Assembly: GCA_963717505.1 (NCBI GenBank)
Contig: OY970342.1
Location: 3,264,001-3,328,000 of the forward strand
Origin: Candidatus Eiseniibacteriota bacterium
GTDB taxonomy: Bacteria; Eisenbacteria; RBG-16-71-46
Direction: 5' to 3'
DNA: 64,000 nucleotides
Position 1 is the stretch's first letter. Every line of letters starts with the position of its first letter. A program made the translations under genes and the position numbers. Below are positions 3,244 to 52,063 of this stretch, piece by piece. Under the pieces are notes generated by a model, which had not been told where the DNA came from, searched no databases, and saw only the letters and a list, made by a program, of their open reading frames with translations.

Positions 3244-3728
3244 GTAGGTCCCCAGATGGAAGTGGCGCGGGGTGTGTCACGGGCGCGGGTGGGACTAGGA
3301 TGCTAGCCCGATTGCCGACGCGCGGCAAGGCTGCAAGTGATTGCAGGCAAGGACCGTCCGAGCTTCGGGCTCCGTGCACTTCGCAATCCGGCGGGTGGGG
3401 GAGGGAACTCCGGCCCTTTGGTTGCCGGGCGGATCGCAGCGCCTCCCGTACCCCCCGGCGCCCCCGGGAAACTAGGGCTCGCGCCCGGAGGCCTAAGTGG
3501 CTATTATGTCGCTTCTGTTACGGGCCCCGACTCTCCCGCAAGACGGGCCATGGATTGAGCGTGTTGCCGGCGCTGAACGTCTCCCCGAGTTCACCCGCTC
3601 GTCGGTGCAGCGCTCGAAGGCTAGCTATCCAGTCCGTCGCAAGCGCGCGCTCTGAGCCATTCCGCTCCGGGGGGCGCCGGCCGCATATTCGGGAGAGCCC
3701 TCTTCTAACCATGCGCCTCGAGACCCTC

Positions 3729-6700
3729 ATGCGGGAGCGACCTTTGTTTTTCGCTCGCGCACTCGGATCGATTGCGGCTCTGGTCGGGTTCGCCTCGACT
3801 GCGCTTCCCGCGTGGGCCCAGACACCAATTCTGGCCGGCTACCGAGATTTCAATTACGGATCGACGGCCATCAACACGCCCACCGGCGAAAAGCCGGAAA
3901 GCAAGTTGTGGTGGAACGACGGTTTCTGGTGGGGGATCCTCTGGGACCCCGCGTCGAACCGCTACGAGATCCACAAGTTCAACGTCGGCACCCAATCATG
4001 GGCGAGCACGAACGTCGCCGCCGACACCCGCAGCAATGCCAAGGCTGATGCGCTGTGGGATGGCACCAACCTCTTCATCGCCTTCCATGTGTTCGCCAAC
4101 GAAGGCGGGCCCGTCAGCCCATCCCAGGCGGCCAGCCTCTATCGCTATTCCTACAATGCTGGTACCGACCAGTACTCGCTCGACTTCGGCTTCCCGGTAA
4201 CGATCAACGGCTCGAACTCCGAGACGCTGGTTCTGGCGAAAGACGGCACCGGGCAGCTGTGGATTACGTGGACGGAGAGGGTCTCACCTACCAATACCCT
4301 CACGAAGGTAATGATCAACCACTCGATGGGAACCAACCACCTGTCCTGGGGCACCCCCTATAGGATTCCCGTCCAAACGCAGGACGCCGACCCCGACGAC
4401 ATCGCTTCGGTCATCGCCCTGCCCGGCAAGATCGGCGTCTTCTGGTCGGATCAGGAGAACGAGGTCGACTACTTCGCGGTTCACCTCGACGGTGCGGCCG
4501 ACGACGTCTGGCAGCCGCGCGAGACCGCGCTCATCGACCCGGTTCTGGCCAACATCGCGGACGACCACATCAGCATGGTCGCGGACCCCGCGGGCAATCT
4601 GTACGTCGCGACCAAGACGAGCCTGAACCTGCCCGCCACGAATCCGATCATCTACCTCCTGAAGCGCACCCCGGCCGGTGTATGGTCGAGATACGTCGTG
4701 GCCACCGTGGGAGATCAGCATACGCGCGCCATCGTCCAGCTCGACGATGGTGGAAACCTCTATGTGTTCATGACCTACGACCCCGGAGGCCCCGAGCCTC
4801 AACAGCTCATCTACCTCAAGTCTACGAACACCAGCAACATCCAGTTTCCCACCGGTTTCGGGACTCCGTTCATCCAGAGCACGACCGACGATCTCGTCAA
4901 CAATTCCACGGGCACGAAACAACTGCTGAACGCCACGACCGACTTGCTCGTCATCGCCAGTGACCAGAGTTCCCACTACTACATGCACAACATGCTGCCG
5001 ATCGGCAGCACCGGGCCCTCCATCGCTTCGTTCCTGCCGCTCAGTGGCGTGGCGGGCACCGAGGTCACGCTTACGGGTTCGGGGTTCACGGGAGCCACCA
5101 ACGTTCGCTTCAATGGCCTCAACGCGCCGGGATTCGTTCTCGACAACGCCAACCAGATCCGGGTCAACGTTCCGGTCGGCGCGACGACGGGGCCGATCAG
5201 CGTCGAGGCGCCCTCAGGCACCGGTATCAGCAGCAGCAGCTTCACGATCCAGACGGTGCCGACCGTGGCCTCGTTCCTGCCCACGAGCGGTCCCCCGGCC
5301 ACGGAAGTGACCGTCAGCGGAACCGGCTTCCTGGGCACTACCAATGTCACCTTCAACGGCGTGTCGGCCACGTACACCGTCGACAGCAACACGCAGTTGC
5401 GCGCGAACGTTCCAGTGGGAGCGACCACCGGGCCGATCGCGGTGACGAATGGGGTGGGTACTGGCACCAGCGCCTCGAACTTCACCGTGACCGCGCCGCC
5501 GCCGGTCGTCACGTTCGCGCCGATTCACGACGCACGGGTCGAAGCCGCGAACCCGACGACCAGCTTCCCTGGGACAGGGACCGGCACCAACCTGTTGCTG
5601 AGAGTTGGCGTCGCAAGCTCCAATCCAATCAACTCGTATCTCAAGTTCAACGTATCCGGTCTGGCTGGACCAGTCGTCGATGCGAAACTTCGACTCTTCT
5701 GCAACGACGACAGTCCAGATGGTGGAAGAATCTACGCAGTCTCGAACAACTACTTGGGAACCTCCACCCCGTGGCTCGAGACTGGTCTCAACTGGAACAA
5801 CGCGCCGACGATCGGCGGAACCATTCTCGACCAAAAGGCCAATGTGCCGGACGAGAGCTGGGTTGAGTTCAACGTCACACCGGCCATCACTGGAAACGGT
5901 GTGTTCAGCCTTGGAATCACGAGCCCGCATGTAAATCTGGCCGCCTACTATCAAAAGGAAGGCGTAAGCCCGCCGCAGTTGGTAGTCACCATCGCCGCCG
6001 GCGCCCCGACCATCGCCAACTTCAACCCGACCAGCGGCCCGCCGGGAACCCAGGTCACGGTGACCGGAACCAACTTCAGCTCGGTCACTGCCGTCACGTT
6101 CAACGGCGTCGCTGCCGCCTCGTTCATCGTCGACAACGCGACCCAGCTACGTGCGACGGTGCCGGCTGCCGCCGGCTCGGGACCGATCGGCATCACCAAC
6201 TCGAATGGCACGACCTTCAGCGCCACCAACTTCACCGTCGATCCGCCGACCATCACCAACTTCACGCCGACCAGCGGGCACATTGGCGCCACGGTCGTCA
6301 TCACCGGCACCCAGTTCAGCACCGTGTCGTCGGTCCGGTTCAACGGCGTCAGCGCCGGGTTCGTCATCAACAACCCGACTCAGATCACGGCCACCGTGCC
6401 CTCGGGCGCGACCACCGGCCCGATCAGCGTGCTCAACCCGGCCGGCTCGGCCTCGAGTGGAACGAACTTCACCGTGATCCTGCCGCCGACCATCGCCTCG
6501 TTCAACCCGACGAGCGGTCCCTCAGGCACCCAGGTCACCGTGACCGGCACCCAATACAGCTCGGTGACTGCAGTGACCTTCAACGGTGTCGCCGCCAGCT
6601 CGTTCATCATCGATAGCCCGACCCAGCTGCGCGCCAACGTGCCGAACGGGACCAACACCGGCCCGATCGGCGTCACCAACCTGGCGGCGACCACGAACAG

Positions 6701-9700
6701 CGCGACCAACTTCACGGTGGTCAAGTACACGCTGGCGACGACCCCGGTCGGCTCGGGAACCATCGGCCGCGTGCCCGATCAGCCGAGCTACGACAACGGC
6801 ACCACCGTCCAGTTGACGGCCACGCCGTCGGTGGGATGGACCTTCACCGGATGGACCGGTGACGCGAGCGGCACGACCAATCCAGTCAACGTCCTGATGA
6901 ACGCGAATAAGACGGTGACCGGGACGTTCACGGTCAACACCTACACGCTGGCGGTGACCCCGATCGGTTCGGGCACCGTCGGGCGAGTACCCGACCAGCC
7001 GACCTACAACCACGGCACCAGCGTTCAATTGACCGCGACGCCGGCCGTGGGATGGACCTTCACCGGGTGGACCGGCGCCCTCACCGGAACCACGAACCCG
7101 GCCAATCTGTTGATGGACGGGAACAAGTCGGTAACCGCGACGTTCACCATCAACACGTACACGCTCGGCGTGACGACCGTCGGCTTGGGCGCGGTCGAAC
7201 AGGAACCCGAACCAGGCGACCTACGACCACGGGACGAACGTCCAGCTGACCGCAATCCCGACGGCGGGGTGGACGTTTACCGGCTGGAGTGGCGACGCTA
7301 CCGGTCTGACCAATCCGCTCAACCTGGTGATGGACGCCACCAAGTCGGTGACCGCAACGTTCTCGCTCAACGCCTACGCGATGAGTGTCGCGGTGGTCGG
7401 GTCCGGCTCGGTCGCCAAGAATCCCGATCAGGCGACCTACAATCACGGGACCAACGTCCAGCTGACCGCAACGCCGGCAACGGGGTGGACGTTCACGAGC
7501 TGGAGCGGCGACGCCACCGGCGCCACCAATCCGGTCACCGTACTGATGGACGGGAACAAGACGGTGACCGCGACCTTCACCATCAACACCTACACGCTGG
7601 GTGTCACGAACGTGGGCTCGGGCTCGGTCACGAAGAATCCAAATCAGGCCACCTACGACCACGGCACGAGCGTCGAGCTGACCGCGACCCCGGCCACCGG
7701 CTGGACGTTCACCGGCTGGAGCGGCAACGCGACCGGCACGACCAATCCGGTCAATGTCCTGATGGACGCCAACAAGAGCGTCACCGCGACTTTCGCGATC
7801 AACACCTACACACTCGACGTGACGGTGGTCGGCTCCGGCTCGGTCGCCAAGAATCCCGATCAGCCGAGCTACGACCACGGAACCAGCGTCGAGCTGACCG
7901 CGACCCCGGCCGTCGGCTGGACGTTCAGCTGGCTGGAGCGGCGCACGCCACGGGCTCGACCAATCCGGTCAGCGTGCTGATGGACGCCAACAAGAGCGTG
8001 ACCGCGACCTTCACCATCAACACCTACACGTTGGGCGTCACGATCGTCGGATCGGGCTCCGTCGCCAAGAACCCCGACCAGGGGACCTACGACCACGGCA
8101 CCAGCGTCGAGCTGACCGCGGTCTCGGCTACCGGCTGGACGTTCGCCGGCTGGAGTGATGACGCGACCGGTGTCACCAATCCGGTCAACGTACTCATGGA
8201 CGACAACAAATCGGTGACGGTGACCTTCACCATCAACACCTACACCCTGGGTGTGACGGTGGTCGGATCCGGTTCGGTCGCCAAGAACCCGGATCAGCCG
8301 ACCTACGAACACGGCACCAACGTCGAGCTGACCGCGACGCCGGATCCGACCTGGAACTTCATCGGCTGGAGTGGTGATGCCACGGGACTGAACAACCCGG
8401 TCAACGTGCTGATGGACGCCAACAAATCGGTGACCGCGACCTTCGCGCTCAACGCGTATGCACTCAGTGTCACGTTGGTCGGCTCGGGCTCGGTCGCGAG
8501 GAACCCCGATCAGGCGAGCTACGACCACGGGACGAGCGTCGAGCTGACTGCGACCCCAGCCACCGGCTGGACGTTCACCGGCTGGAGCGGCGACGCCTCG
8601 GGCTCGACCAACCCGGTCACTGTGCTGATGGAAGCCACCAGGAATGTGACTGCGACGTTCACCGTCAACACCTACACGCTGGCGGTCGACGCGATCGGAT
8701 CCGGGTCGGTCTCGTGGATTCCGGACCAGCCGACCTACGACCACGGCACCATCATCGCGCTGACGGCGAGCCCGAGCCCGACCTGGCACTTGGTCGGTTG
8801 GAGCGGCGATGCCAGCGGCAGCGAGAGTCCGCTCAATCTTCTGATGGATGGAAACAAGTCGGTCATCGCGACCTTTGCGCTCAATACCTACACGCTGTCG
8901 GTCACGGTGGTCGGCTCGGGTTCAGTCGGCAGGAACCCCGACCAGCCGTCATACGACCACGGAACGACGGTCGACTTGACCGCGAACCCAGCGACGGGCT
9001 GGACCTTCACCGGCTGGAGTGGCGACGCCACCGGAACGACCAATCCGGTGAACGTCCTGATGGACGCCAACAAGAGCGTGACCGCGACCTTCACGGCCAA
9101 CACCTACACGCTGGCGGTGAACACAGTGGGCTCGGGTACGGTCGCGAAGAACCCCGATCAGCCAAGCTACGATCACGGCACCAGCGTCGAGCTGACGGCG
9201 AGTCCGGTCACTGGCTGGACATTCACCGGCTGGAGCGGCGACGCGACCGGCTCGACCAACCCGGTCAACGTCCTGATGGACGGCAACAAGTCGGTAACCG
9301 CGACCTTCACCATCAACACCTACACGCTGGCGGTGACCACGGTGGGCTCGGGCTCGGTCGCGAAGAACCCGGACCAGGCAACCTACGACCACGGGACGAG
9401 CGTCCAACTCACGGCCGCGCCGGATCCGACGTGGAACTTCGTCGGCTGGAGCGGTGGCGCGACGGGCACGACCAACCCGGTCAACGTCCTGATGGACGCG
9501 AACAAGTCAGTGACCGCGACCTTCGCGCTCAACGCGTATGCGCTGAGTGTGACGGTGGTCGGTTCCGGCACGGTCGCCAAGAACCCCGATCAGGCGACCT
9601 ATGGCCACGGTACCAGCGTCGAGTTGACCGCGAACGCGGCGGCGGGATGGACGTTCAGCGATTGGAGCGGTGACGCCACGGGCTCGACCAACCCGGTCAA

Positions 9701-12212
9701 CGTCCTGATGGACGCGAACAAGTCGGTGACTGCGACCTTCACGATCAACACCTACACGCTGGGCGTCACGATCGTCGGTTCGGGCTCGGTCGCCAAGAAC
9801 CCGGATCAGCCAACCTACAACCATGGGACGAGCGTGCAGCTGACTGCGACGCCTGACCCGACCTGGAACTTCGTCGGCTGGAGCGGAGCCGCCACCGGCA
9901 CGACCAATCCGGTCAGCGTCCTGATGGACGCCAACAAGTCGGTGACCGCGACCTTCGCACTCAACGCGTATGCGCTCAGCGTCACGGTCGTCGGCTCGGG
10001 CACGGTCGCCAAGAACCCCGATCAGGCGACCTATGGCCACGGTACCAGCGTCGAGCTGACCGCGAACGCGGCGACGGGCTGGACGTTCAGCGGCTGGAGC
10101 GGAGCCGCCACGGGTTCGACCAACCCGGTCAACCTGGTGATGGACGCCAACAAGAGCGTGACCGCGACCTTCACCGTCAACACCTACACGCTGGGCGTCA
10201 CGATCGTCGGTTCGGGCTCGGTCGCCAAGAACCCGGATCAGCCGACCTACAACCACGGGACGAGCGTGCAGCTGACCGCGATGCCGGCGGCGGGATGGAT
10301 GTTCAGCGCCTGGAGCGGCGATGCCAGCGGAACGACCAACCCGGTCAACGTGGTGATGGATGCCAACAAGAGCGTCACCGCCTCGTTCGCGATCAATCCG
10401 CAGCAGTTGACCTTCAACCCGCAGCACGACGGTCGCGTCCAGTCGGACAATCCGACGCGGAGCTACGGGACTGGAACCGGAACCGTACCGCTGCTGCGCG
10501 TGCGGAACACGGGTCCCACGGTGCACTCGTACCTCAAGTTCCAGCTGTCCGGCCTCGCCGGTCCGGCGGCCAGCGCCAAGCTCCGGCTCTTCTGCGTCGA
10601 CGCCAGCACGGACGGCGGTGGCGTCTACTCGGTGTCGAACAACTACGTCGGGACGTCGACGCCGTGGGTCGAGACCGGCCTGACCTGGAACACCGCGCCC
10701 GGGGTCTCGGGCGCGCCGCTCGCCCAGGTCGGCAACGCCAACCTGAACGCCTGGGTCGAGGTCGACGTCACTTCCGCGATCACCGGCGACGGCACCTTCA
10801 GCTTCGCGTTGACCAGTGCCTCGACCAACATCGCCGGATACGAGTCGAAGGAGGGAGCGAATCCCCCACAACTGGTGATCAACGGCGGCGGGGTTCCAAA
10901 CCTGACCCCGACGGTCCAGTCGTTCACCCCGACCAGTGGCATCGCCGGCACCGAGGTCACGATTGCCGGGACTCACTTCACCGGCGCGACTGGCGCCAGC
11001 TTCGGCGGGGTGGCGGCCAGTTCGTTCACCGTCGATTCCGACGTCCAGGTTCGCGCCACGGTCGCCGCGGGTGCGGTCACGGGACCAGTGCGAGTCACGA
11101 CACCCGAGGGCACGGGTGTCAGCGCGAGCAACTTCACCATCATCGCACCGCCGACCGTGAGCAATTTCTCGCCGGGCAGCGGCTCGCCGGGGACCCAGGT
11201 CACGCTCATCGGAACCGGCTTTGGGCTCGCCACCAGCGTCGCGTTCAATGCGGTCGCGGCGACCTTCATCGTCGACAGTGACGCCCAGATTCGGGCGACC
11301 GTCCCGGGTGGGGCGACCACCGGCCCGATCTCGGTTGGCAACCCGGCCGGGACGGGCACGAGCCCGAGCAGTTTCGTGGTCACCGCGCCGCCGCCGCAGG
11401 TGACGTTCACGCCGGTGGCCGACGCGCGCGTCCAATCCGCCAACCCGACCACCAACTACGGTTCCGGATCCGGGACCAATTCACTGCTGCGGGTGAGGAG
11501 CACGGGACCGACCATCAACTCGTACCTCAAGTTCCAGGTGGCCGGCGTCTCGGGACCGGTGGTCAACGCCAAGCTGCGACTGTTCTGCGTGGACGAGAGC
11601 GTCGATGGCGGCAGGGTCTACTCGGTGTCGAACAACTACGTCGGCACCTCGACGCCATGGCTCGAGAACGGGCTGATCTGGAACAACGCGCCGGCCATCA
11701 GCGGCTCGCCGCTTTCCCAACACGGAGCGGTGCCGATCAACGCCTGGGTCGAGTTCGACGTGACCGCCGCGGTCACCGGCGACGGAACCTACAGCTTCGC
11801 TCTGGCCAGCAACTCGACCAACATCGTCGGCTACAACTCGAAGGAGAGCGCGACGCCGCCGCAGCTGGTGATCGACGTCGGCACGGGCGCGGCGGCGGCT
11901 ACCGCGTCGATCGATATCGGCGCTTCGTCGGTCGGCCGAGTTTCGCTCGGCCCGGCGTACCCGAATCCGTTCCGCAGCCAGGTCTCGATGCGACTCGAGC
12001 TACCTCGGGAGGATCGCGTACGGCTCGAGGTCTATGACGTGCTCGGACGCCGGGTAAAGGTCCTGGCGGACGGCGACTATGCGCCTGGGGCGCACGAGTT
12101 CACCTGGGACGGTCGCAATGAGATCGGCGCACGGGTCGAAGCCGGGATCTACATGATCCACCTCGAAGCCCAGGGGGTCACCGCCCGGCGCAAGGCTGTC
12201 CTGGTTCGCTAA
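3729..12212 (+). CDS. Giant secreted repeat protein: N-terminal propeller-like domain, 7 IPT/TIG, 3 DNRLRE/CBM96-like, 17 InlB-B-like repeats, C-terminal FlgD-Ig/sorting domain; three +1 indels
   Basis: Signal peptide after ATG 3729 (alternative 3711). IPT 'PTIxxFxPTSG' units and 'SYLKF...AKLRLFC' modules are visible, and the C-terminus reads 'YPNPF...VYDVLGRRV'. Between ~7200 and ~7930 the repeats continue in the ORF 7327..7980 frame. Confidence 0.85.
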   Translation: MRERPLFFARALGSIAALVGFASTALPAWAQTPILAGYRDFNYGSTAINTPTGEKPESKLWWNDGFWWGILWDPASNRYEIHKFNVGTQSWASTNVAADTRSNAKADALWDGTNLFIAFHVFANEGGPVSPSQAASLYRYSYNAGTDQYSLDFGFPVTINGSNSETLVLAKDGTGQLWITWTERVSPTNTLTKVMINHSMGTNHLSWGTPYRIPVQTQDADPDDIASVIALPGKIGVFWSDQENEVDYFAVHLDGAADDVWQPRETALIDPVLANIADDHISMVADPAGNLYVATKTSLNLPATNPIIYLLKRTPAGVWSRYVVATVGDQHTRAIVQLDDGGNLYVFMTYDPGGPEPQQLIYLKSTNTSNIQFPTGFGTPFIQSTTDDLVNNSTGTKQLLNATTDLLVIASDQSSHYYMHNMLPIGSTGPSIASFLPLSGVAGTEVTLTGSGFTGATNVRFNGLNAPGFVLDNANQIRVNVPVGATTGPISVEAPSGTGISSSSFTIQTVPTVASFLPTSGPPATEVTVSGTGFLGTTNVTFNGVSATYTVDSNTQLRANVPVGATTGPIAVTNGVGTGTSASNFTVTAPPPVVTFAPIHDARVEAANPTTSFPGTGTGTNLLLRVGVASSNPINSYLKFNVSGLAGPVVDAKLRLFCNDDSPDGGRIYAVSNNYLGTSTPWLETGLNWNNAPTIGGTILDQKANVPDESWVEFNVTPAITGNGVFSLGITSPHVNLAAYYQKEGVSPPQLVVTIAAGAPTIANFNPTSGPPGTQVTVTGTNFSSVTAVTFNGVAAASFIVDNATQLRATVPAAAGSGPIGITNSNGTTFSATNFTVDPPTITNFTPTSGHIGATVVITGTQFSTVSSVRFNGVSAGFVINNPTQITATVPSGATTGPISVLNPAGSASSGTNFTVILPPTIASFNPTSGPSGTQVTVTGTQYSSVTAVTFNGVAASSFIIDSPTQLRANVPNGTNTGPIGVTNLAATTNSATNFTVVKYTLATTPVGSGTIGRVPDQPSYDNGTTVQLTATPSVGWTFTGWTGDASGTTNPVNVLMNANKTVTGTFTVNTYTLAVTPIGSGTVGRVPDQPTYNHGTSVQLTATPAVGWTFTGWTGALTGTTNPANLLMDGNKSVTATFTINTYTLGVTTVGLGAVEQEPEPGDLRPRDERPADRNPDGGVDVYRLEWRRYRSDQSAQPGDGRHQVGDRNVLAQRLRDECRGGRVRLGRQESRSGDLQSRDQRPADRNAGNGVDVHELERRRHRRHQSGHRTDGREQDGDRDLHHQHLHAGCHERGLGLGHEESKSGHLRPRHERRADRDPGHRLDVHRLERQRDRHDQSGQCPDGRQQERHRDFRDQHLHTRRDGGRLRLGRQESRSAELRPRNQRRADRDPGRRLDVQLAGAAHATGSTNPVSVLMDANKSVTATFTINTYTLGVTIVGSGSVAKNPDQGTYDHGTSVELTAVSATGWTFAGWSDDATGVTNPVNVLMDDNKSVTVTFTINTYTLGVTVVGSGSVAKNPDQPTYEHGTNVELTATPDPTWNFIGWSGDATGLNNPVNVLMDANKSVTATFALNAYALSVTLVGSGSVARNPDQASYDHGTSVELTATPATGWTFTGWSGDASGSTNPVTVLMEATRNVTATFTVNTYTLAVDAIGSGSVSWIPDQPTYDHGTIIALTASPSPTWHLVGWSGDASGSESPLNLLMDGNKSVIATFALNTYTLSVTVVGSGSVGRNPDQPSYDHGTTVDLTANPATGWTFTGWSGDATGTTNPVNVLMDANKSVTATFTANTYTLAVNTVGSGTVAKNPDQPSYDHGTSVELTASPVTGWTFTGWSGDATGSTNPVNVLMDGNKSVTATFTINTYTLAVTTVGSGSVAKNPDQATYDHGTSVQLTAAPDPTWNFVGWSGGATGTTNPVNVLMDANKSVTATFALNAYALSVTVVGSGTVAKNPDQATYGHGTSVELTANAAAGWTFSDWSGDATGSTNPVNVLMDANKSVTATFTINTYTLGVTIVGSGSVAKNPDQPTYNHGTSVQLTATPDPTWNFVGWSGAATGTTNPVSVLMDANKSVTATFALNAYALSVTVVGSGTVAKNPDQATYGHGTSVELTANAATGWTFSGWSGAATGSTNPVNLVMDANKSVTATFTVNTYTLGVTIVGSGSVAKNPDQPTYNHGTSVQLTAMPAAGWMFSAWSGDASGTTNPVNVVMDANKSVTASFAINPQQLTFNPQHDGRVQSDNPTRSYGTGTGTVPLLRVRNTGPTVHSYLKFQLSGLAGPAASAKLRLFCVDASTDGGGVYSVSNNYVGTSTPWVETGLTWNTAPGVSGAPLAQVGNANLNAWVEVDVTSAITGDGTFSFALTSASTNIAGYESKEGANPPQLVINGGGVPNLTPTVQSFTPTSGIAGTEVTIAGTHFTGATGASFGGVAASSFTVDSDVQVRATVAAGAVTGPVRVTTPEGTGVSASNFTIIAPPTVSNFSPGSGSPGTQVTLIGTGFGLATSVAFNAVAATFIVDSDAQIRATVPGGATTGPISVGNPAGTGTSPSSFVVTAPPPQVTFTPVADARVQSANPTTNYGSGSGTNSLLRVRSTGPTINSYLKFQVAGVSGPVVNAKLRLFCVDESVDGGRVYSVSNNYVGTSTPWLENGLIWNNAPAISGSPLSQHGAVPINAWVEFDVTAAVTGDGTYSFALASNSTNIVGYNSKESATPPQLVIDVGTGAAAATASIDIGASSVGRVSLGPAYPNPFRSQVSMRLELPREDRVRLEVYDVLGRRVKVLADGDYAPGAHEFTWDGRNEIGARVEAGIYMIHLEAQGVTARRKAVLVR
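6726..10400 (+). repeat. 17 tandem 216-bp (72-aa) coding repeats
   Basis: Tyr codon starting each unit lies at 6726, 6942, 7158, 7375, 7591, 7807, 8025, 8241 ... 10185. Spacing is 216 except 217 and 218 where indels fall. Confidence 0.9.
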
Positions 12213-24003: not shown

Positions 24004-25659
24004 TCACGCCCCCCCGAGCAACCGGTCGGGACTCGCCGCGACCCTGCGCCACACGTCGACTCTCCAGTCCGCGCGCAGCTCAGCGGACTCGGCCGCCAGG
24101 GCGTGCGCGGGAGCGCGGCGCACGACCGCTGCCGCTTGCGTCACCCAACCGGCCATGCAGAGCCCCGGGAGCGCCGCCTCGGGCAGCGAAAGACCGGTGC
24201 AGTAGCGGGCGAGGGGCGCGCGCAGCCATTCGGGAGCACCGGCGAAGGCGTCGACGATGGCGCTCGCGGCCGAAGGGCCGGTCATGGCCTGCGCGCGTGC
24301 TCGCGCGACATAGGCCAGGAAGAAGCACAAGTCGGTGGCCGGAAGTCCGATCGGCTCCGACAGCTCCCAGTCGAGCACCGCCGCCGCCCCGGACGGACTC
24401 AGGAGAATGTTCGGGTGACTCAAGTCACCATGCTCGAGCACGCTCGGGATCGCATGCGACGCCAGGGGCCGAACCACGCGCCGCGTCGACTCGCACAACT
24501 CCGGGTCCGCGAGCCCGGCGGACTGGAGATCGCCGAGATCGCGCTCGATGCGTTGCAGAATCCAGGAATCGCCGGCGGGGCGGTCGCGGCGCGAGGGGGT
24601 CTGAACCTCGATCATCCAGTCCACGATTGCCGCACAACAGTCCGCAGCATCGGCGCGCACCCGCGCCGGGTCCATGGCGCGTCCGGTCAGCGCGGTTTCC
24701 GCGAGCAGCGCGTGCCCTTCGAAGACCTCGCACGCGATCACTCGGGGAATCGAGACGAATCCGCCGGATCGCAGCGCATGAATCGCGCGCAGGCGATCGG
24801 CTTCCTCCTCGAGACCCTGCGAGCGCCCGGCCCGCCGCGCAAGCTTGACCGCGATCGCCGGCGCATCAGCGTCGCCGGCGAACAACAGGAACACCAGGTG
24901 GCTGGAGTTCCTGAATCGCGGGGTGAGGGCGAGGAACGGCGCGTTGGGTCCAATGCCGAGCTTGGAAACGCCATCCTCGCGCGAACGATCAATGAGGAAG
25001 CGATGGACGAAACTGTTCGCTCGGACGGCCACGGGCGTCGCCCGGCCGGGGGAGGTCTCCGGGCTTCGAATCGCGATCACGCTCCCGAGTACGACTCGAT
25101 CGAGGAGCCCGAGATTCAGGAGCAAGTTCGCCGCGTGGCCCTGGAGCCGGGTGCGCAGTCCGCTTCCGGCGCGCATGAGCGCGTTGCGGATCGGGGCCCG
25201 GTCGGCGAGGGGAACGATGCGCGTGCAGCGTTCGAGGTCCGGCCAGTGCCAATGGGCGCGCACCTCCGCGAATCCGAGATCGCGAAGCCGCCGCGTCACG
25301 GCGCCGAGCGTGGTCGGCCCCCGGCCCCGACTCGCGTCCGAGGTCCCCGACGAACGCGGCTGCACTTCGACGATCAGCGAACCGCCGGGAGCCACATGTT
25401 TCGTGGCGCGCACCAGTTCAGCGTCGGTCGCATTCGAGGCGACCACGAGACGCAACAGACCCTGGGGATGCGACGGCTCGGTCGACGCGCCGACTAGCTC
25501 GACCTGGGCCAGGAGACGAAGCGCCGGCGGAACCTCGCGGCCGAACCATCCCACGCGATCGGGCCAGGGATGGGAGAGCAGGAACCGCCAGTCGAAGCGC
25601 GCCAGATCCTGGGCCGGGGAAGCCAATGGACCTGGGACCGAGGCGGCGTCCGGGCTCAC
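24004..25659 (-). CDS. APH-like phosphotransferase with an N-terminal methyltransferase-like remnant
   Basis: 'EHGDLSHPNILL' and 'VLDWELS...GLPATDLCFFL'; N-terminal 'VAPGGSLIVE'. Confidence 0.75.
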   Translation of the reverse strand: MSPDAASVPGPLASPAQDLARFDWRFLLSHPWPDRVGWFGREVPPALRLLAQVELVGASTEPSHPQGLLRLVVASNATDAELVRATKHVAPGGSLIVEVQPRSSGTSDASRGRGPTTLGAVTRRLRDLGFAEVRAHWHWPDLERCTRIVPLADRAPIRNALMRAGSGLRTRLQGHAANLLLNLGLLDRVVLGSVIAIRSPETSPGRATPVAVRANSFVHRFLIDRSREDGVSKLGIGPNAPFLALTPRFRNSSHLVFLLFAGDADAPAIAVKLARRAGRSQGLEEEADRLRAIHALRSGGFVSIPRVIACEVFEGHALLAETALTGRAMDPARVRADAADCCAAIVDWMIEVQTPSRRDRPAGDSWILQRIERDLGDLQSAGLADPELCESTRRVVRPLASHAIPSVLEHGDLSHPNILLSPSGAAAVLDWELSEPIGLPATDLCFFLAYVARARAQAMTGPSAASAIVDAFAGAPEWLRAPLARYCTGLSLPEAALPGLCMAGWVTQAAAVVRRAPAHALAAESAELRADWRVDVWRRVAASPDRLLGGA

Positions 25660-26945
25660 GGCGCCTGACCCGCGGCGACCGCGCGAAAGCGCCGGGCGAG
25701 CTGCTGCGCGGTTCCGCGCAGGTCGAACTCCCGCTCGACCTTGGCTCGGGCGGCGACGCCGAGCCGATCCCGCAGGGACGGATCGCGCAACAATCGCTCG
25801 ATCGAATCGGCGAGACCGCGGGCGTCACCCGGCTCGACCAGGAGCCCGCTGACTTCGTGTTCCACCAGCTCGGGAATCCCCGACAGCCGACTGGCAACCA
25901 CCGGTCGGGCAGTGGCCATCGCCTCCATCAGGACGACGGGGATTCCTTCCCGCCGCCCGTCGCGACTCGGCACACTCGGGGTCGCGACCACGTCGGCCGC
26001 ACGCATCGCGCCGCGCACCTGCTCCTGCGTCATGCGCCCACGGAACACCACGCGATCGGCGATCCCCAGCCGCTGGGCCTGACGCGCGAGCATCGCCTGG
26101 TCCGGCCCGTCGCCGACCAGATGGCACTCGACGTCGAGTCCGCGTTCGACCAGGTGGTGGCACGCGTCGACCAGATGGGTTTGGCCTTTGACCTCGTGCA
26201 GCGTGCCGACGCACAGGACCGTCGGCCGGCCGTTGCCGCCGGCCGTCGCGGACGCGCCAGGCGCAAAAGCACGCGTATCCACCCCGCAATGTATGACCTC
26301 GAGCCGGGCGGCGCTCCCCGTGCCGCACTCCTCGAGGATCACGCGCCGGTTGAACTCCGAGATCGCGACCACGAAGGCGGCGTCTCGGACCTTTTCGCGC
26401 AGCATGTGGCGATCGACGTGCAGGTCGGAGCCGTGCGCGGTGAAACTGTACGGGATTCCGGTCAGGCGGTGGATGATCCACGCCACCGCCGCAGGGTGGC
26501 TGGCGAAATGGGCGTGAACGTGTTGGATCCCGTCCGACGACATTCGGCGCGCGAAGTCCACGGCCTTCGGGAAGAACACCAGGCCGCCCGTCAGGTATCG
26601 AATGCTTCCCAGATTCCTCAGCACCAGCTCGAAGAGCGCTCCCAGGTAGCGTGCGGGATGGCGAACCAGCATCGCCAGGTTGGCCGCAACCACCGAGGGA
26701 GAGAGCAGTGGGCTGAAATGGGCCCGGTCGATCCAGCGCCGCGCTTCGGCGTGGACGGTCGAGGAGCGCTCGAAGCGCAAAGGGTAGAGCTCGACCTGCA
26801 CACCCTCGTTCTCGACCGCGCCCATCTCGAACAGGATGAACGTCTCGGTGAGCTTGGGGAATCGAGACATGATGTAGGCGACCCGTGGCGAGTCGCCCGC
26901 TGAACGGGGAGTGGGCGGCGACAAGGCCGGCAAGCCTAGCATCAT
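25656..26945 (-). CDS. GT4 glycosyltransferase (WcaL-like)
   Basis: 'SRFPKLTETFI', 'HVHAHF' and 'EGIPVVLMEAMA'. ATG 26945 is preferred because the GTG at 26981 lies in a terminator. Confidence 0.9.
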   Translation of the reverse strand: MMLGLPALSPPTPRSAGDSPRVAYIMSRFPKLTETFILFEMGAVENEGVQVELYPLRFERSSTVHAEARRWIDRAHFSPLLSPSVVAANLAMLVRHPARYLGALFELVLRNLGSIRYLTGGLVFFPKAVDFARRMSSDGIQHVHAHFASHPAAVAWIIHRLTGIPYSFTAHGSDLHVDRHMLREKVRDAAFVVAISEFNRRVILEECGTGSAARLEVIHCGVDTRAFAPGASATAGGNGRPTVLCVGTLHEVKGQTHLVDACHHLVERGLDVECHLVGDGPDQAMLARQAQRLGIADRVVFRGRMTQEQVRGAMRAADVVATPSVPSRDGRREGIPVVLMEAMATARPVVASRLSGIPELVEHEVSGLLVEPGDARGLADSIERLLRDPSLRDRLGVAARAKVEREFDLRGTAQQLARRFRAVAAGQAP

Positions 26946-26974
26946 GGAGCCTCGCGCGTCATCGCCGCGCCCTG

Positions 26975-27011
26975 AAAACACCGAACCCCGGACCTTGGGC
27001 CCGGGGTTCGG
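26975..27011 (-). terminator. Rho-independent terminator after the FN3 gene
   Basis: Minus strand: CCGAACCCCGG...CCGGGGTTCGG followed by TGTTTT. Confidence 0.7.
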
Positions 27012-27039
27012 CGTGCGATCTGCACGTTCGCGGAGTGGA

Positions 27040-27786
27040 TCAGGTTCCGATGGTCAGGTCGTTCACCGCCGCCGGCGCGGTCTGATCCGGCGTGACGATC
27101 TGGATCACGTTCGAGATCGGGGAAATGTTGCCGACCTCGTCCAGCGCCCGGATCGCGATGTAGTACGTGGTCTGGCGGCTCAAACCGTTGACGGTGAAGT
27201 TGTGGACGGTTCCCGGATTCCCGGGAGCCGGTTCGCCATTGGCCTGCGTCGCGGAGGACCAGTTGCCTTCGGTGACCGGGGAGGTCGAATAGCGAACGTC
27301 GAAAGTCGTGGCCTGACCCGTGCCGCCGTCGTCCCCGGAAGCGTTCCAGCGCAACGCGACCGACGTCTCGTTGATCGAGGTCGAGGTCAGCGTCGCCGGC
27401 GCGCCCGGGGCGGCCGTGTCGAGCGCCAGCGTCGTCCGGGTGATGATGTTCGAGATCGCGGCCCAGTTCGGCACCTCGTCCCCGGTCTTCAGGGCGAAGT
27501 AGTAGGTGGTCGAGGGCGACAACCCGGTGACCGTCACGCTCTGCGTGCTGCCCGGCGAGGTTGGCGCCGGCATCGCCGTCCACCGCGTTGCGGACGCGAA
27601 ATTCGAGGCGGTGATCGCCGAAGTCGAGTAACGCAGATCGTACTGAGAAGCGATTCCGGTGAGACTGTCGTCACCCGTTGCGGTCCAGGTCAGGGTGATG
27701 CTGTTGTGGGTCTCCTGGGCCGCCACCACACCGGGGGCGAGGACACCCGCAGCGGCCAGAATCAAGATCAAGGAATTCCAACGCAT
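27040..27786 (-). CDS. Secreted two-domain fibronectin type III protein (strand-permuted)
   Basis: GGAGG RBS and a signal peptide, then two 'LxWxAxGDD...Y(D)xRYS...GL...TTYY...DEVxN' units. Confidence 0.85.
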   Translation of the reverse strand: MRWNSLILILAAAGVLAPGVVAAQETHNSITLTWTATGDDSLTGIASQYDLRYSTSAITASNFASATRWTAMPAPTSPGSTQSVTVTGLSPSTTYYFALKTGDEVPNWAAISNIITRTTLALDTAAPGAPATLTSTSINETSVALRWNASGDDGGTGQATTFDVRYSTSPVTEGNWSSATQANGEPAPGNPGTVHNFTVNGLSRQTTYYIAIRALDEVGNISPISNVIQIVTPDQTAPAAVNDLTIGT

Positions 27787-28268
27787 CGGCATCCTCCGTT
27801 GGTGCCTGCAGCCGCCTGCCGGGGCACAGCGCTGCCTCGTGGGATGTAGGGTCTCAGGGTACTGCCGTGTTGGAAGCCCCCAGCAGACAGCACGAAACAT
27901 GCCGCCAGGGCCATTCACTGCAGAGCCGTATCGAACGGCCCTATCTCGTTCTGGGAAGGATCTCCAGCCCTTCCATGGGCGTGCCTCGGCCAGACTTGCC
28001 TCGCAATCGGTTCGTTGGCAGTGCAACTCACAACGGCCGTAGTGCAACCTGCAGATCTTCCATGACCTGGGGGACCCGCGTCGCCACGCCAAACCGCTGG
28101 CGCTCAACGACCGGGGGGTTGTAAGGCCCGGGAGCGATCAGTAGGCTGCCACAGGTGCAGGCCCCCTCCAAGTAAGATTATTGTGTAGCCTGAGAAATCG
28201 CTGAGTGCGATACTCTTACACGGTCGCAGCAGGGTGGAAGCGGGTAGCCTGCCCCCCAAGCTCCGGAG

Positions 28269-29879
28269 GTGGTATTGATCCGAGCCCTTAGGCATACCGG
28301 GCCGTTGTCACTCTTCTTGGTGTTGCTCGTCGCGCCCCTACCTTCTCCGCTGTGCGCACAGACGGTCGTCACCCCACGTTTGACGCTGGACGACCCCGTG
28401 ATCCTGGATCAGGACGATCTGTGTATCTGGGTCCACCCCTCGGATCCCGCCCTCAGCCTGCTCGTCACTTCCGACAAGGCTGCCAGCAAGCTGTTCGTCT
28501 ACGACCTCGAAGGCACCACGCTTCAGGTCGTCGATCTGCCGGGCGGGCAGCCGGGCAACATCGACCTGCGCTACAACTTCGATCTCCAGGGCAGCGCCAC
28601 GGACATCATCGCCGTCAACGACCGAAACAGCCGCAAGCTGTTCTTCTACCGCGTCGATCCGACCACCCGTCAGATCGAGCGCATCGACAACAACGCGATT
28701 GGCACGGCATCGAGCAACTACGGACTCTCGCTCTACATCAGCCCGATGACCGGCAAGTACTACTGCTTCTCTTCGACCGAGAGCGGGGTCATCGAGCAGT
28801 TCGAGCTGGCCGACGTCGGCGGACAGATCGGCGGAACGGTGGTTCGCAGCTGGGACATCGGCGGCATCACCGAGGGCTCGGTGTGCGATGACGAAAACGC
28901 CGTCGTCTACTTCGGCGAGGAAGACGTCGGCATCTGGCGAATTGGCGCCGAGCCGAACGATCCCACAGTGGGCACTGAGGTCACCGCGGTCGGGGATTCG
29001 TCCGGCATCGTCGCCGACATCGAGGGTCTGACCCTTTACTACGCGGCGGACGGTGAGGGCTACCTGATCGCCTCGAGCCAGGGGAACGACTCCTACCGGG
29101 TCTTCCAGCGCAAAGCGCCGAATGCATTCGTCGGTTCGATCATGGTCACCGGCGTCGGCGGCACGGATGGCATCGACGTGATCAACGTCAATCTCGGTCC
29201 GGCGTTCCCACAGGGGCTGTTCGCGGTGCACAACGACATGGCGCGCCCGCGCACCATCGAGGTCTGTGGATACGAAGACCTGGGTCTGTCGATCGACACC
29301 GACTATTGGGATCCACGCGAAGGCGCGGGGGTCGCCACGCTCATCGCGCTGGGCACCGTCCAGGCGGAACCCGGGCGAGTGCAGCTCACCTGGTACGGCG
29401 GTGATGCTCGAGGTCGCTCGGTTTCGGTGTACCGGCGCACCGACGCATCGGTCTGGTCGTGGCTGTCGAACGAAGTGGTCGACGGCAACGGCCGCGTGCA
29501 GTTCGAGGACGACGACGTTCAGCCGGGCGTGCGCTACGGGTACCGGCTCGGCATCCAGGAATCCGGCATGGAACTCTTCCTGGGCGAGGTCTGGGTGGAC
29601 GTTCCCTCGGGATTCCAGCTCGCGCTCCAGGGCTTGCGGCCGAATCCGTCGGAACGCGACTTGGTGATCGCGTTTTCGCTGCGCGACCAGAGTCCCGCGG
29701 ACCTCGAGATCTTCGACGCCTCCGGCCGCCGCCAGTGGTCGCAGCGCGTGGAGTCCCTGGGTCCGGGGAACCACGTCATGAACGTGGGGCGCATGGTCGC
29801 CCTGCCGCCCGGGGTCTACCTGATGCGAATCACCCAGGCCGGTGTTTCGGTGACACGTCGCGGGATCCTGCTGAACTAG
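28269..29879 (+). CDS. Beta-propeller phytase (3-phytase) with C-terminal sorting-like domain
   Basis: 'DDLCIWVHP', 'TEGSVCDDE', 'ADIEGL', 'YLIASSQG' and 'TDGIDV'; C-terminus 'RPNPS...IFDASGR...PGVYL'. Confidence 0.85.
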   Translation: MVLIRALRHTGPLSLFLVLLVAPLPSPLCAQTVVTPRLTLDDPVILDQDDLCIWVHPSDPALSLLVTSDKAASKLFVYDLEGTTLQVVDLPGGQPGNIDLRYNFDLQGSATDIIAVNDRNSRKLFFYRVDPTTRQIERIDNNAIGTASSNYGLSLYISPMTGKYYCFSSTESGVIEQFELADVGGQIGGTVVRSWDIGGITEGSVCDDENAVVYFGEEDVGIWRIGAEPNDPTVGTEVTAVGDSSGIVADIEGLTLYYAADGEGYLIASSQGNDSYRVFQRKAPNAFVGSIMVTGVGGTDGIDVINVNLGPAFPQGLFAVHNDMARPRTIEVCGYEDLGLSIDTDYWDPREGAGVATLIALGTVQAEPGRVQLTWYGGDARGRSVSVYRRTDASVWSWLSNEVVDGNGRVQFEDDDVQPGVRYGYRLGIQESGMELFLGEVWVDVPSGFQLALQGLRPNPSERDLVIAFSLRDQSPADLEIFDASGRRQWSQRVESLGPGNHVMNVGRMVALPPGVYLMRITQAGVSVTRRGILLN

Positions 29880-49506: not shown

Positions 49507-49812
49507 TCCATCTCCTTTGGGGTGTGAGCAGGATGTCTCTCGTGACCCGGAGCCGACCGCGACACGCGAGCCGGAACCGGAAGCATCTTCACCGTTCGGC
49601 AGCCGTGATTTCCACCAAAAACTTCCCGAACGCCGATCGACGTCGGATCGGGTGCGGAACCGGAGCTTCCGCTAGTGCATTGTCGGACCGGCGTTTTGCC
49701 GGTGAGGAGATGCGGGTGTTGAGGTGCGAGCGCCGCCCAGACTTGGCAGGTCGTTGACGATCGGGAACACGGAAAGCGCAAGTCGCCGAACCGCGGTCTT
49801 GGGAAACTCCGT

Positions 49813-52063
49813 CTAGCGAAGCATCAGCACTTTGGCGGTGGCGGCATGACGCCCGGCCTCGGCCTTCAGGAAGTAGATCCCGGCCGGAGCAACGGTGCCG
49901 TCCTCGAGACGCCCGTCCCACGTCACGCGATGCGTGCCGGCTTCGAGGGCGCGGTCGAGCAGCGTATGCGCCCGTCGGCCCGAGAGGTCGTAGAGGGCCA
50001 GCCGAGCGTGCGCCGCCGCCGGCAGGGTGAACTCGGCCGCCAGACTGCCGCGGGTCGGATTGGGCCCAACTGCCAGCCCGAGCGACGATCCACCGGGCGT
50101 TTCTCCGACCGCGGTCGCCAGCGATGCGTCGTAGGTCACATAGACCGGCCCGGTCCAGATGCGCTCGTTGTCGTCGGTGCGGATGCGTAGGTAGTAGTGG
50201 ACCTCGGTGCCGTCGGCGAACACGTCCCGTTCGCGCCAGTCGAAGCGCGAGCTTCCGATCGACCCCGCGACTTTGACTGCGCTCGATGCCCCGGTGATGC
50301 CGCGGAACAGCTCGACCTCGGCCACGAAGTCGTCGAGGTCCGGATCGGTGACGTCGAGCGCGATCCGGATGCCGGCGGGCGTGGCGAAGACCCGCCCCAT
50401 CGGGAACCCGTTGGCCGATACACCGACCACGGCATTGTGATCCTGAGTGGCGTAGCTGCGGCCTTCGGCCAGCCCCGCCAGGATTTCGCTCTTGCTCAGG
50501 CCGGCGGCCAGCACGCGCCGTGCGGCTCTGGCTCGACGCGCCCCATGTGGCATTGTGATTGTCCTGGTCCGCGACCGGGGAGACGCGATAGCCCTTGCGC
50601 AGCGCCTCCTGGAACTGCCCATCGAAATTGGTATTGCCGATGTCGGACTCGGTGGTCGAGGTCGATTGTGCGGGACCGTTGACCAGTGCCATTTGGTGCA
50701 CGACGCCCAGTCCGGCAGCCGTCACCGCCAGGTTTGCGAAGTCGCCAGCCGCGGGATGGCAGAACTGCGCAACCGGGGCATGCTCGGCCGGTGGGTTGGC
50801 CTGGATCGCCGCGTACAGGCCGGGATAGTCCCCCTGCGCCACGAACACGTCGTAGTTGCCCGGCTCCCAGCCAAAGAGTACCGGGGACTCGAAGATGTTG
50901 ACATGTCCCTCGGCGGCAATACCCCACTCCTGGCCGTAGATCGCGACGAACTCGCCATCACTGTTCGCGGCTTCGGCCTGGAGCATGCCGAGCGCGTAGC
51001 TCGGCAGCAGCATGCCGGCCGAGGAGTGGTTGTGATCGGTGACGGCCAGGAAGTCGAGCGGGGTCGGCGCGGTGTAACGCGCATAGAACCACGCATCCGT
51101 CGGGGTCTGAACGCCATCCGAAAACGACGTGTGCGAATGAAGGTTGCCGAAGTACGCGTTGTAGCCGAGATCGGTCGACAGTCGCTCGCCGGTCGCCGGC
51201 GCAGCTCCCGGACTGTTGGAGACTCCGCTCGAGTTGGGGACCTCGTCGCGCGTCTGCAGCGCGAAATAGTAGGTAGAGTCAGGATCCATCCCAAAGACGT
51301 ACAGGGTCTCTGCGGTTCCCGCGGCCGAAGGCACGTGCTCGACCAGCCAGCGGTCGAGATCGCCCGCGGCGCCAAACGTGCCCGAGGTCAGCGGTGCGTC
51401 GTCGACCCGGATGATGTACTCGCTGGCCGTTTCCGAGGCGCCGTCGTCGCCGGGCGCCGTCCACGTCAGGCGGACCTCACCGGCGAAGGCGCCAGGAATC
51501 GCCATCAGATCGAGCACCGTGGCCGGCGCCGTGACGTCGCCGACGCCGCCGTTGGACGCGCAGAACGTGTCCGGAAAGCGCCAGGCGAAGTTGGCGGACC
51601 CGTTCGGAATCGCCGACCAGACGTTACCCGATTGCGCCGCCGCGTCGGGGTAGGAGATGACATGGACGACAGTCGAGGGGAAGGTGCGATTGGAAACCAG
51701 ATAGACCGTGTCGCCGCCGTTGTTCAGGTACGCGCCCGTGCCCTGACCCCGGATGACACGAAACTCTCCGGGCTGGATCACGGCGGTCCCCGGACAGCCG
51801 ACGAAGTCCTCGGGAATTCGGGCCCGGATCGTGGCGTCGTCGATGGTGGCGGCGTCCTCGATCGCCCAGCCGGTCATGTCCACCGGGGCCGCGCCCGCGT
51901 TGTAGATCTCGATCAGCTCTTCGGCGCCGGTCTCGCTGCCGTTGGGGTTCGGAATCAGCTCGTTGATGACGATCTGGGCGCCGGCGATGCCGGACAGGGT
52001 AGCCAGCGAGAGCGCGGCGGCAACCATCGGGGCGAGAACGGCAAAGCGGGCGGGTCGGCCCAT
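49813..52063 (-). CDS. Secreted lamin-tail + FN3 + PHP (CehA/McbA-like) metallohydrolase with FlgD-Ig C-terminus (+1 indel at ~50518)
   Basis: 'IVINELIPNP', 'GNLHSHTSFSDG', 'AVTDHNH' and 'DNH'; the C-terminus continues in ORF 49813..50622. Confidence 0.8.

Follow-up and report, generated by a model that had tools for sequence, protein, structure and literature searches.

A small protein encoded in a 64,000-nucleotide stretch of a Candidatus Eiseniibacteriota genome (contig OY970342.1, positions 3,264,001–3,328,000 of the forward strand; this whole stretch is the window below) raises the question of what becomes of a β-strand that is left over at the end of a fibronectin type III (FN3) chain. 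The gene (window 27040–27786, minus strand, stop codon included) is defined by its open reading frame (ORF) and translation, by two matches to the Pfam family fn3, and by a database protein, P0002, that is 100% identical over 248 aa. Its product opens with an FN3 domain that has no strand A and closes, after a complete second FN3 domain, with the lead-in to another strand A, after which the chain stops. An earlier reading of the window, made from the sequence only, had proposed that this spare strand completes the next subunit of a head-to-tail filament. Here, we confirm the observation and find partial support for the interpretation, in an in silico case that is strong and coherent and extends over many uncultured lineages. 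Judged from the alignments and the structure models, we consider it rather probable that the strand acts by intermolecular A-strand complementation, leading to head-to-tail chains.

Domain Architecture and Strand Register

The protein matches Pfam fn3 (PF00041) in two stretches (E 3.3e-18; bit score 66.1, cut-off 25), the better of which, in domain 2, covers residues 131–231 and profile positions 2–82 of 84; the Pfam family Pur_ac_phosph_N matches it as well. It is thereby placed among the Pfam fn3 tandem proteins, as a member whose domain 1 is without its first strand. Domain 1 (mature residues 1–96; 27430–27717, minus strand) starts at the A/B turn according to the BLASTP register, the AlphaFold2 (AF2) model, and a three-copy model, and is the proposed site of an acceptor groove. 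It is followed by the inter-domain lead-in and the complete FN3 domain 2 (mature residues 97–208; 27094–27429, minus strand), which, by Pfam and AF2, has a strand A of its own; the inter-domain lead-in is short, like those of extended FN3 tandems. The C-terminal tail (mature residues 209–225, TPDQTAPAAVNDLTIGT; 27043–27093, minus strand) is recognized by its register, its column identity, and the models as a spare strand-A lead-in, and is the proposed donor.

The register rests on a BLASTP alignment of domain 1 with domain 2, which share 51% identity over 87 aa at an inter-domain offset of 113 residues; the Ser of NSITLTW in domain 1 is anchored on the Ser of ETSVALRW in domain 2. The lead-in of domain 2 comprises the 15 residues D100–S114 and contains strand A with its core leucine, L110. 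In domain 1, the equivalents of these 15 residues are residues of the signal peptide and only QETHN. Because the lead-in equivalents fall in the signal peptide and only QETHN is left before strand B, the mature domain 1 has no strand A. At the other end of the chain, D211–T225 matches D100–S114 residue for residue, with the same spacing from Asp to Pro to Leu. T225, the last residue, sits on the structural position of Q1, the first mature residue, so that the tail and the mature domain 1 add up to exactly one FN3. Read in this register, the chain is a permuted FN3 array that starts and ends at one point, with the nick in the A/B turn.

The anatomy given in the sequence-only reading is borne out by these results: domain 1 does begin at strand B after the signal peptide, as the translation and the BLASTP register both have it, domain 2 has a full A-strand lead-in (D100–S114) whose residues 111–115 are modeled as a strand, and the protein does end in an orphan lead-in (D211–T225, in register) ahead of a terminator, with a hairpin 36 nt past the stop. 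The FN3 domain that had been offered as an internal control, in the protein encoded at 49589–52063 on the minus strand, is preceded by a complete lead-in (...GDVTAPATVLDLMAIPGAFAGEVRLTW).

Conservation of the Missing and the Spare Strand

Homologs were collected with a word-index search, which returned 1366 proteins of 137–438 aa at E ≤ 0.001 among 4213 candidates; the best 120 of the 1366 were examined. In an alignment of the mature protein with 63 two-domain homologs of 62–84% identity (alignment A1, 64 rows), the missing strand A and the terminal spare strand A are both kept in 64 of 64 sequences. Q1, W11, T209, D211, P215, and L221 are invariant in A1, and P210, T213, A216, A217, D220, and G224 are conserved in at least 90% of the rows. 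Mean column identity is 0.85 for the tail (residues 209–225; 0.83 for 211–225), compared with 0.67 for the domain 2 lead-in (100–114) and 0.81 overall. The tail is therefore more conserved than the strand A at work in domain 2, which argues that it is not useless.

Among the best 120 matches, 110 carry a spare-A motif after the last domain, as found by a regular expression, with 3–44 residues past the core Leu. These 110 proteins comprise 67 with two domains and 43 with three, and P0083 was added by eye; eight of the other nine appear truncated or frameshifted, and P0121 has a different architecture. Simple truncation of a three-domain gene, which the sequence-only reading had named as a finding that would count against it, is ruled out because the three-domain homologs too end in a spare strand A. 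A second such finding, homologs with a complete domain 1, is absent from the 64 two-domain sequences and possibly present in 24 of 49 three-domain ones, a count from a rough regular expression that is taken up below. A fold minus one strand and a terminal spare strand in matching register are thus jointly conserved, the combination by which donor-strand-complemented polymers, a class defined by function and not by sequence, are recognized.

The position of the stop recurs as well. P0003 (81% identity) ends in ...DLSIGT, and P0007 (74%) and P0017 (68%) end in ...DLTIGS, the same stop position in independent relatives. In all, four relatives of the 250-aa type, at 60–81% identity, end 4–5 residues past the Leu, P0086 stopping one residue later than the other three.

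The extension that follows the tag in most two-domain homologs (P0036–P0120, L011–L054) combines a conserved hydrophobic segment of the G-[FLW]-x-W-x-G-W-like type with a basic terminus that often reads ...GGR. It was considered as a membrane helix or a sorting signal; neither reading was adopted, since the AF2 model shows disorder and searches matched no family. The FN3 subtype itself is abundant, with 15967 library representatives at E ≤ 0.001, the top scorers being giant multi-repeat proteins. To judge from the titles of the homolog records, which name Candidatus Eisenbacteria, Zixibacteria, and others, the family is widespread in uncultured lineages.

Structure Models of One and Three Copies

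AF2 models the mature monomer, with A1 as its alignment, as two FN3 domains (mean predicted local distance difference test score, pLDDT, 92.9; predicted template modeling score, pTM, 0.66). Domain 1 opens with strand B (residues 6–12), and domain 2 has strand A at 111–115 and strand B at 119–125. Residues 209–225 are unpaired and have no strand state by DSSP, with pLDDT values of 92 and 82 for the tail. The tail of a paralog of the longer type, described below, is equally unpaired in its AF2 model, and the 19-residue extension of that protein is disordered (pLDDT 68/55/43).

In a model of three copies of the mature protein, again with A1, the interaction prediction score from aligned errors (ipSAE) is 0.44/0.46/0.44, against 0.00 for the best control; among proteins of solved structure, 20 of 30 homo-pairs and 1 of 23 single chains attain the mark of 0.42. 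At least 82% of the contacts are common to the runs, and the pLDDT of the partner is no lower than 82. The confident interface joins residues 211–225 of copy 2 to residues 1–2, 7–12, 14–17, 23, 60, 74–80, 82, 84–92, and 94 of copy 3. In it, L221 contacts residues 9–11, 74–76, 89, and 91, V218 contacts 11–12, 77–78, and 86, and P215 contacts 78–80 and 86. The predicted interface is thus formed by strand B and the F/G face, the canonical position of strand A in FN3 domains. The partner's own tail lies outside the confident interface, and the model is accordingly an open chain, not a ring.

The computational checks that had been suggested with the sequence-only reading came out in its favor: the tail does not pair within its own chain in the monomer, and with several copies it is placed in the domain 1 groove of a neighbor. 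That the three-copy model passes its controls supports binding without showing it. Nearest among solved folds are eukaryotic FN3 tandems, and a search by sequence for a similar complex among solved structures gave generic FN3 matches only, which are uninformative about assembly.

The Strand-A Tag on Other Proteins

The genome is a single contig of 4.16 Mb (C1; coordinates so labeled refer to this contig, not to the window). Of its frames that match a loose expression for the tag in their last 45 residues, 28 in number, four are convincing genes: those of the window protein, of its paralog, and of two adjacent secreted enzymes. The two enzyme genes (G000:C1:2843010-2846425, equivalent to L091 3010-6425, minus strand) encode a phytase of 410 aa and a TPR-purple acid phosphatase of 728 aa, neither with an FN3 domain after the tag. 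The phytase (Pfam Phytase, E 1.1e-82) ends with a Gly run, then ...PDTTPPAAITDL plus 8 residues, and the phosphatase (Metallophos, Pur_ac_phosph_N) ends with ...DVTPPAAITDL plus 17 residues.

The phosphatase tag is conserved. Among the best 120 matches to the catalytic part, the ten closest-type sequences (the protein itself, P0274, P0287–P0293, and P0319; 62–100% identity) end in the tag, 3–18 residues past the Leu, nine of them recognized by the regular expression and one by eye. Most other phosphatase homologs have a FlgD_ig or type IX secretion system (T9SS)-type end, and a few have dockerin-like repeats or FN3 domains. Relatives of the tagged phytase were matched in 3 of 61 genomes; they either carry a T9SS-type domain at the end or have no terminal module at all. 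Because these relatives are without the tag and the phosphatase relatives have it, conservation is shown for the phosphatase tag and not for the phytase tag. The genome holds two phytases in different versions: one (window 28269–29879) has a T9SS sorting domain, and the second has the strand-A tag instead.

Tags also occur in series on proteins of other kinds. Two metagenome loci (L124 1806-8732 and L129 1880-9492; L123 is near-identical to L124) have three consecutive genes for secreted non-FN3 proteins that end in the tag, namely a Kelch propeller, an unknown 610-aa protein, and a right-handed β-helix, with the tag stopping 3–4 residues past the Leu. Their divergent neighbors are a gene for an A-less FN3 protein with Por_Secre_tail and a two-FN3 gene with groove and tag; L129 has, in addition, a second A-less FN3 gene with an end of the C-terminal domain (CTD) type. 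The tag behaves as a portable C-terminal module, since it alternates with known anchoring modules and since tag-only genes cluster with groove genes.

The Paralog Operon and Its Secretion Context

The paralog is 52% identical to the window protein, is of the longer type, and has groove, tag, and the 19-residue extension (C1:93826-94647, minus strand). It is the first gene of an operon (G000:C1:91489-94647, equivalent to L090 5489-8647, minus strand) that continues with an A-less FN3–FlgD_ig protein and a PorV/PorQ–LysM protein. The second gene, directly downstream of the paralog, encodes 322 aa whose first FN3 domain starts at strand B past the signal site (...AYG↓QGVDTVVVRW); the chain carries no tag and ends in a FlgD_ig/T9SS-type CTD (FlgD_ig, E 1.5e-10). 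Because of this T9SS-type domain, the groove-only FN3 protein is likely to be a cell-surface anchor. The third gene encodes a barrel of the PorV/PorQ family (NF033709, bit score 123.9, cut-off 90) that carries a LysM domain at its C-terminus. On its gene matches, the operon combines a protein with groove and tag, a second that has only the groove and a C-terminus for surface sorting, and a member of an outer-membrane family that handles such ends. Divergent from it are genes for two T2SSE proteins, a T2SSF protein, and a type IV pilin.

This arrangement is syntenic across many loci that are Candidatus Eisenbacteria by record title. By tblastn on 32 of 79 genome-contig loci, chosen by architecture, the FN3-CTD protein was matched in 32 of 32 (FN3 being common with the focal gene, so that cross-matches are possible) and the PorV-like protein in 28, and the divergent T2SSE/T2SSE/T2SSF/pilin cluster in 23, 23, and 18. 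In a survey of the ORF downstream at 42 loci, for which an A-less N-terminus was defined as small-x-small↓Q, 2–5 residues, and DS[VL]xLxW, and a CTD end as ...LVRVP-type, both features were found at 18 loci and the end only at 5 more; at 16 of the remaining loci the script picked another frame, and at 3 the sequence ended too early.

The genome has a T9SS, with a match of 226 bits to the SprA model (cut-off 200) and a PorU-like match of 356 bits, under its cut-off of 420; dozens of its ORFs match just the CTD part of the PorU model. The window protein (P0001) itself gave no match to Por_Secre_tail or TIGR04183 in the Pfam and NCBIfam searches. The SprA-like translocon (G000:C1:2397432-2401563) is matched in five pieces in different open frames, and frameshifts or indel errors may therefore exist in the assembly.

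A Proposed Model for Donor-Strand Assembly

What the computations show is a permuted anatomy that is conserved, a modular spread of tag and groove, and a predicted interface in trans; the following sequence of events would link these findings. Sec export and cleavage before Q1 would leave the strand-A position of domain 1 open as an acceptor groove, and the last 15 residues would serve as donor, in the form of a free strand A. This strand would then zip antiparallel to strand B, beside the F/G face, of the domain 1 of another molecule, with L221 entering the core and completing the FN3 fold of the partner, and the C-terminus of one chain would come to abut the N-terminal Gln of the next. Repetition of this step would give a string of FN3 beads, continuous except for its nicks, in which the molecules follow one another head to tail and are held non-covalently. 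At one end, a groove-only protein with a CTD would terminate the chain at the cell surface; at the other, tag-only enzymes such as the phytase and the purple acid phosphatase could take the free groove as likely cargo or tip. The cleavage site, binding in the cell, the length of the polymer, the route of export, and the roles of anchor and cargo are what we infer in this scheme.

How far assembly would go in the case of the window protein is a separate matter. That this paralog forms a homopolymeric fiber is a real possibility, if one to which we give somewhat less than an even chance, and its use in mixed or adaptor assemblies only seems unlikely. Of the earlier proposal, head-to-tail strand complementation stands insofar as the alignment and the monomer and three-copy models agree on pairing in trans; the designation as a new type of pilus goes beyond what is shown, and this paralog may, in place of forming long fibers, link an anchored acceptor to tagged enzymes. 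A broader proposal, which we put forward tentatively, is a modular split-FN3 system in which any secreted protein that bears a tag of 12–20 residues would be joined irreversibly, through that tag, to an A-less FN3, amounting to a pilus and a cellulosome in one. Proteins with both parts would polymerize, acceptor-only proteins with T9SS ends would serve as anchors, and tag-only proteins (phytase, purple acid phosphatase, Kelch, and β-helix proteins) would be displayed. Such a system would need no chaperone or protease, because removal of the signal peptide alone would create the groove.

Weighing the Alternatives

Several observations weigh against the donor-strand reading. The domain 1 block reaches pLDDT values of 88–97 without strand A, and because AF2 models it so confidently the domain may be stable alone. 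The ipSAE of the three-copy model exceeds its mark by just 0.02, and the counts behind the mark come from two copies and hold roughly for three; moreover, a structure model may insert any A-like peptide at a vacant FN3 edge from its knowledge of the fold. Covariation (average product correction of mutual information, 123 two-domain sequences) gives mixed partners for the tail, whose core columns are too conserved to vary: the top partner lies in domain 2 (E117), and two residues of domain 1, E2 and T8, rank within the top 25. The domain 2 lead-in served as a control here, its columns 109/111/113/114 coupling with columns 121/123 of its strand B. Most two-domain homologs are some 29 aa longer than the window protein, with 24–43 residues after the tag, an extension that the favored model does not explain, and scans of genome and metagenome contigs for the 250-aa type returned only relatives of at most 64% identity, all of the longer type. 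In the 24 of 49 three-domain homologs mentioned above, strand B is preceded by about 5 extra residues, among them a Leu that falls on the core position, so that these proteins may own a short strand A and a complete domain 1; a second small-x-small site 4–6 residues further on makes the cleavage site ambiguous in them. Genome-wide, the loose tag expression is not enriched, its 28 matches, against 24.8 expected, coming from 20862 frames (stop to stop, 100 aa or longer). The neighbors of the window gene (a GT4 glycosyltransferase gene and others) are not conserved beside its homologs, and the window protein itself is without a CTD. Finally, we know of no chaperone or usher equivalent for FN3 assembly, and the favored model gives no route across the outer membrane and no guard against premature polymerization.

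Some of these points would be at home in an explanation without complementation, in which domain 1 is a stable six-stranded FN3 and the P-x-x-[VI]-x-D-L motif is a linker remnant or a sorting or recognition signal, read by a PorV/PorQ-like barrel or another envelope machine. The confident fold of domain 1 in AF2 agrees with it. So does the phosphatase family, where the tag takes the place of T9SS-type CTDs and dockerin-like modules, as a secretion signal would, and so does the PorV/PorQ-family gene that is syntenic with the family. The Trp-rich hydrophobic stretch and the basic end after the tag in most two-domain homologs can be counted on the same side; they may loosely resemble sorting signals built of a motif, a hydrophobic part, and a basic part. 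However, the tag is homologous, in register, to the internal strand-A lead-ins, and a signal identical to every linker would be awkward; nor did the Pfam and NCBIfam searches match any sorting-signal family. A stable domain 1 with a remnant behind domain 2 also sits poorly with a tag that stops, in independent lineages and enzyme families, 3–5 residues past the core Leu, where the N-terminus of the acceptor begins, with the co-occurrence of A-less acceptors and tags in genomes and loci, and with a three-copy model that passes its controls. We hold this explanation to be unlikely, if the most credible of the single rivals.

Complementation might also be closed, with the tail folding back on its own domain 1 or two or three chains swapping tails in a ring, to give a small oligomer. 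An arrangement of the domains side by side and antiparallel would, by geometry, place the C-terminus close to where domain 1 begins, and the high pLDDT of the unpaired monomer tail is compatible with this. Against it, DSSP assigns no strand to the tail in the monomer models of the protein and of its paralog, the three-copy model is open, the inter-domain lead-in is as short as in extended tandems, and the feature is kept in proteins of two and of three domains alike; tag-only enzymes, for their part, cannot close a ring. A closed form is, in our view, quite improbable, and it and the absence of complementation together make up a substantial minority of our expectation. That the short C-terminus is an artefact or the mark of a decaying gene, with a frameshift or premature stop in a gene of the 275–280-aa type, is scarcely credible. 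The split SprA-like gene and the greater length of most two-domain homologs could be cited for it, but four relatives from other sources likewise lack the extension, three of them with an identical stop residue, P0002 on another contig is identical in the aligned part, a contig from another run covers the tail codons (26975–27120) without change, and a terminator follows the stop; on these grounds, truncation is largely refuted. Donor-strand complementation between molecules is the reading that we favor over these three.

Gene, Signals, and Neighbors

The protein lies in a single open frame of 250 aa (27040–27792, minus strand; stop at 27040–27042) with two candidate ATG codons, at 27792 (250 aa) and at 27786 (248 aa, MRW...). 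A Shine-Dalgarno-like GGAGG read from the sequence (27793–27797, minus strand) probably serves as the ribosome-binding site. It stands 6 nt ahead of the ATG at 27786 and abuts that at 27792, which makes the former the likelier start and the 248-aa chain the likelier product; P0002, from another contig, is likewise called from MRW and is 100% identical over the aligned 248 aa. The first 23 aa from MRW (27718–27786, minus strand) form a Sec signal peptide by translation, which runs from a basic n-region through a hydrophobic core to V-A-A↓Q; small-x-small↓Q is conserved, and by the −3/−1 rule cleavage would occur at V-A-A↓Q. The whole protein has no Cys, and no lipobox; lacking Cys, it is not a lipoprotein. 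Downstream, 36 nt 3' of the stop, lies a hairpin with a T run that resembles an intrinsic terminator (26981–27004, minus strand), where 1 was found against a mean of 0.7 in shuffled sequences.

Two genes follow on the minus strand, for the GT4 glycosyltransferase (25656–26981, by Pfam) and, downstream of it, for a 551-aa ORF with no Pfam family at E ≤ 0.01 (24004–25659). On the plus strand, the divergent gene at 28269–29879 encodes the phytase with a T9SS type A sorting domain (Pfam Phytase, E 7.3e-70; TIGR04183, bit score 34.9, cut-off 23). Farther away, a 2970-aa ORF (3300–12212, plus strand) matches the CTD part of the PorU model at its C-terminal end (about 11874–12176) and is probably a giant T9SS cargo.

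The contig that spans 26975–27120 and leaves the tail codons unchanged comes from another DNA run. A run labeled as a metatranscriptome (X8) gave two 151-nt contigs that are 93–98% like 27407–27555 and 27594–27744. These RNA-library contigs stem from a relative, and DNA carry-over is possible, so that they are no proof of transcription.

Significance

If the favored reading is true, an FN3-based principle would join the few known modes of building non-covalent bacterial surface polymers, in phyla for which metagenomes are nearly the sole source of knowledge. The same reading would account for the stray-linker ends, as yet unannotated, of hundreds of small proteins recorded as fibronectin type III domain-containing and of several enzyme families. 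A validated pair of tag and groove, being short, encoded, and apparently portable, could become a tool for protein ligation or display. The hypothesis is directly testable on recombinant protein, which has 225 residues and is cysteine-free.

Comparison with Known Systems

By sequence, the window protein belongs to Pfam fn3 and to no known pilin family. Ordinary tandem-FN3 proteins and the FN3 linkers of glycoside hydrolases and phosphatases share this common domain family, but their domains are complete within one chain; the protein described here is a permuted array with a spare strand A at the chain end, a strand that is also found alone on unrelated enzymes. We found no paper on this FN3 family in the literature within reach, which leaves aside subscription journals and supplementary files.

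Polymers held together by donor strands are known from several sources, among them archaeal threads, bundling pili, and cannulae. Closest in logic to the present case are the type V pili of Bacteroidota (FimA/Mfa1). As described in the cited passages of PMC13655056, a C-terminal donor strand replaces the N-terminal strand of the acceptor in a protease-mediated exchange, the polymer is head-to-tail and non-covalent, the C-terminal residues are essential, and anchor subunits cannot propagate the chain; the pilins, as lipoproteins, are lipidated at a Cys, and cleavage by Arg-gingipain frees the groove (PMC13655056). The FN3 protein resembles them in its predicted C-terminal donor, in its N-terminal gap, and in coming from a lineage with a T9SS; a type V-style placement of the C-terminal donor in the N-terminal groove is predicted by the model score (ipSAE 0.44, control 0.00). 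Unlike the type V pilins so described, it has no Cys and no propeptide strand, and it has a Sec-type V-A-A↓Q site; since there is no propeptide strand, cleavage by signal peptidase alone would leave the groove open. Its fold is FN3, and the Pfam and NCBIfam searches matched FN3-type families only and no fimbrillin family. Its donor, too, differs from that of type V pili in being a single strand of some 8–10 residues.

The wider class includes the Pap pili and the Pam pili of Candidate Phyla Radiation (CPR) bacteria, in which, in the cited part of PMC13278184, an incomplete β-sandwich is completed by a strand of the next subunit, and the TasA fibers, a polymer with an N-terminal donor strand in the cited part of PMC9674648. 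The likeness to the chaperone-usher, Pam, and TasA class lies in an incomplete Ig-like fold that is completed by a neighbor, with groove-only or donor-only subunits as tips or terminators. The polarity is opposite to that of these systems, chaperone-usher pili (Fim/Pap) included, where the donor is N-terminal and the C-terminal strand G is missing; in the FN3 protein the donor is C-terminal and strand A is missing. Chaperone-usher and Pam systems are dependent on dedicated chaperones, and the FN3 domain is a bona fide Pfam fn3. By Pfam and NCBIfam, no chaperone or usher gene lies beside the window gene or in the paralog operon, ushers not having been searched genome-wide.

In its mode of action, though not in family membership, the proposed system can be compared with cohesin-dockerin pairs and with T9SS CTD anchoring, where a short C-terminal module likewise attaches diverse secreted enzymes to a scaffold or a surface. 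The proposed tag differs from these modules in having some 12–20 residues, in acting by completion of a fold and not as a folded domain, and in making no covalent attachment of the kind made in T9SS sorting. The class of mechanism, completion of a fold by the strand of a neighbor, is already established; what would be new here is the FN3 fold, the C-terminal donor, the absence, as far as seen, of a protease or chaperone, and the possible display of enzymes.

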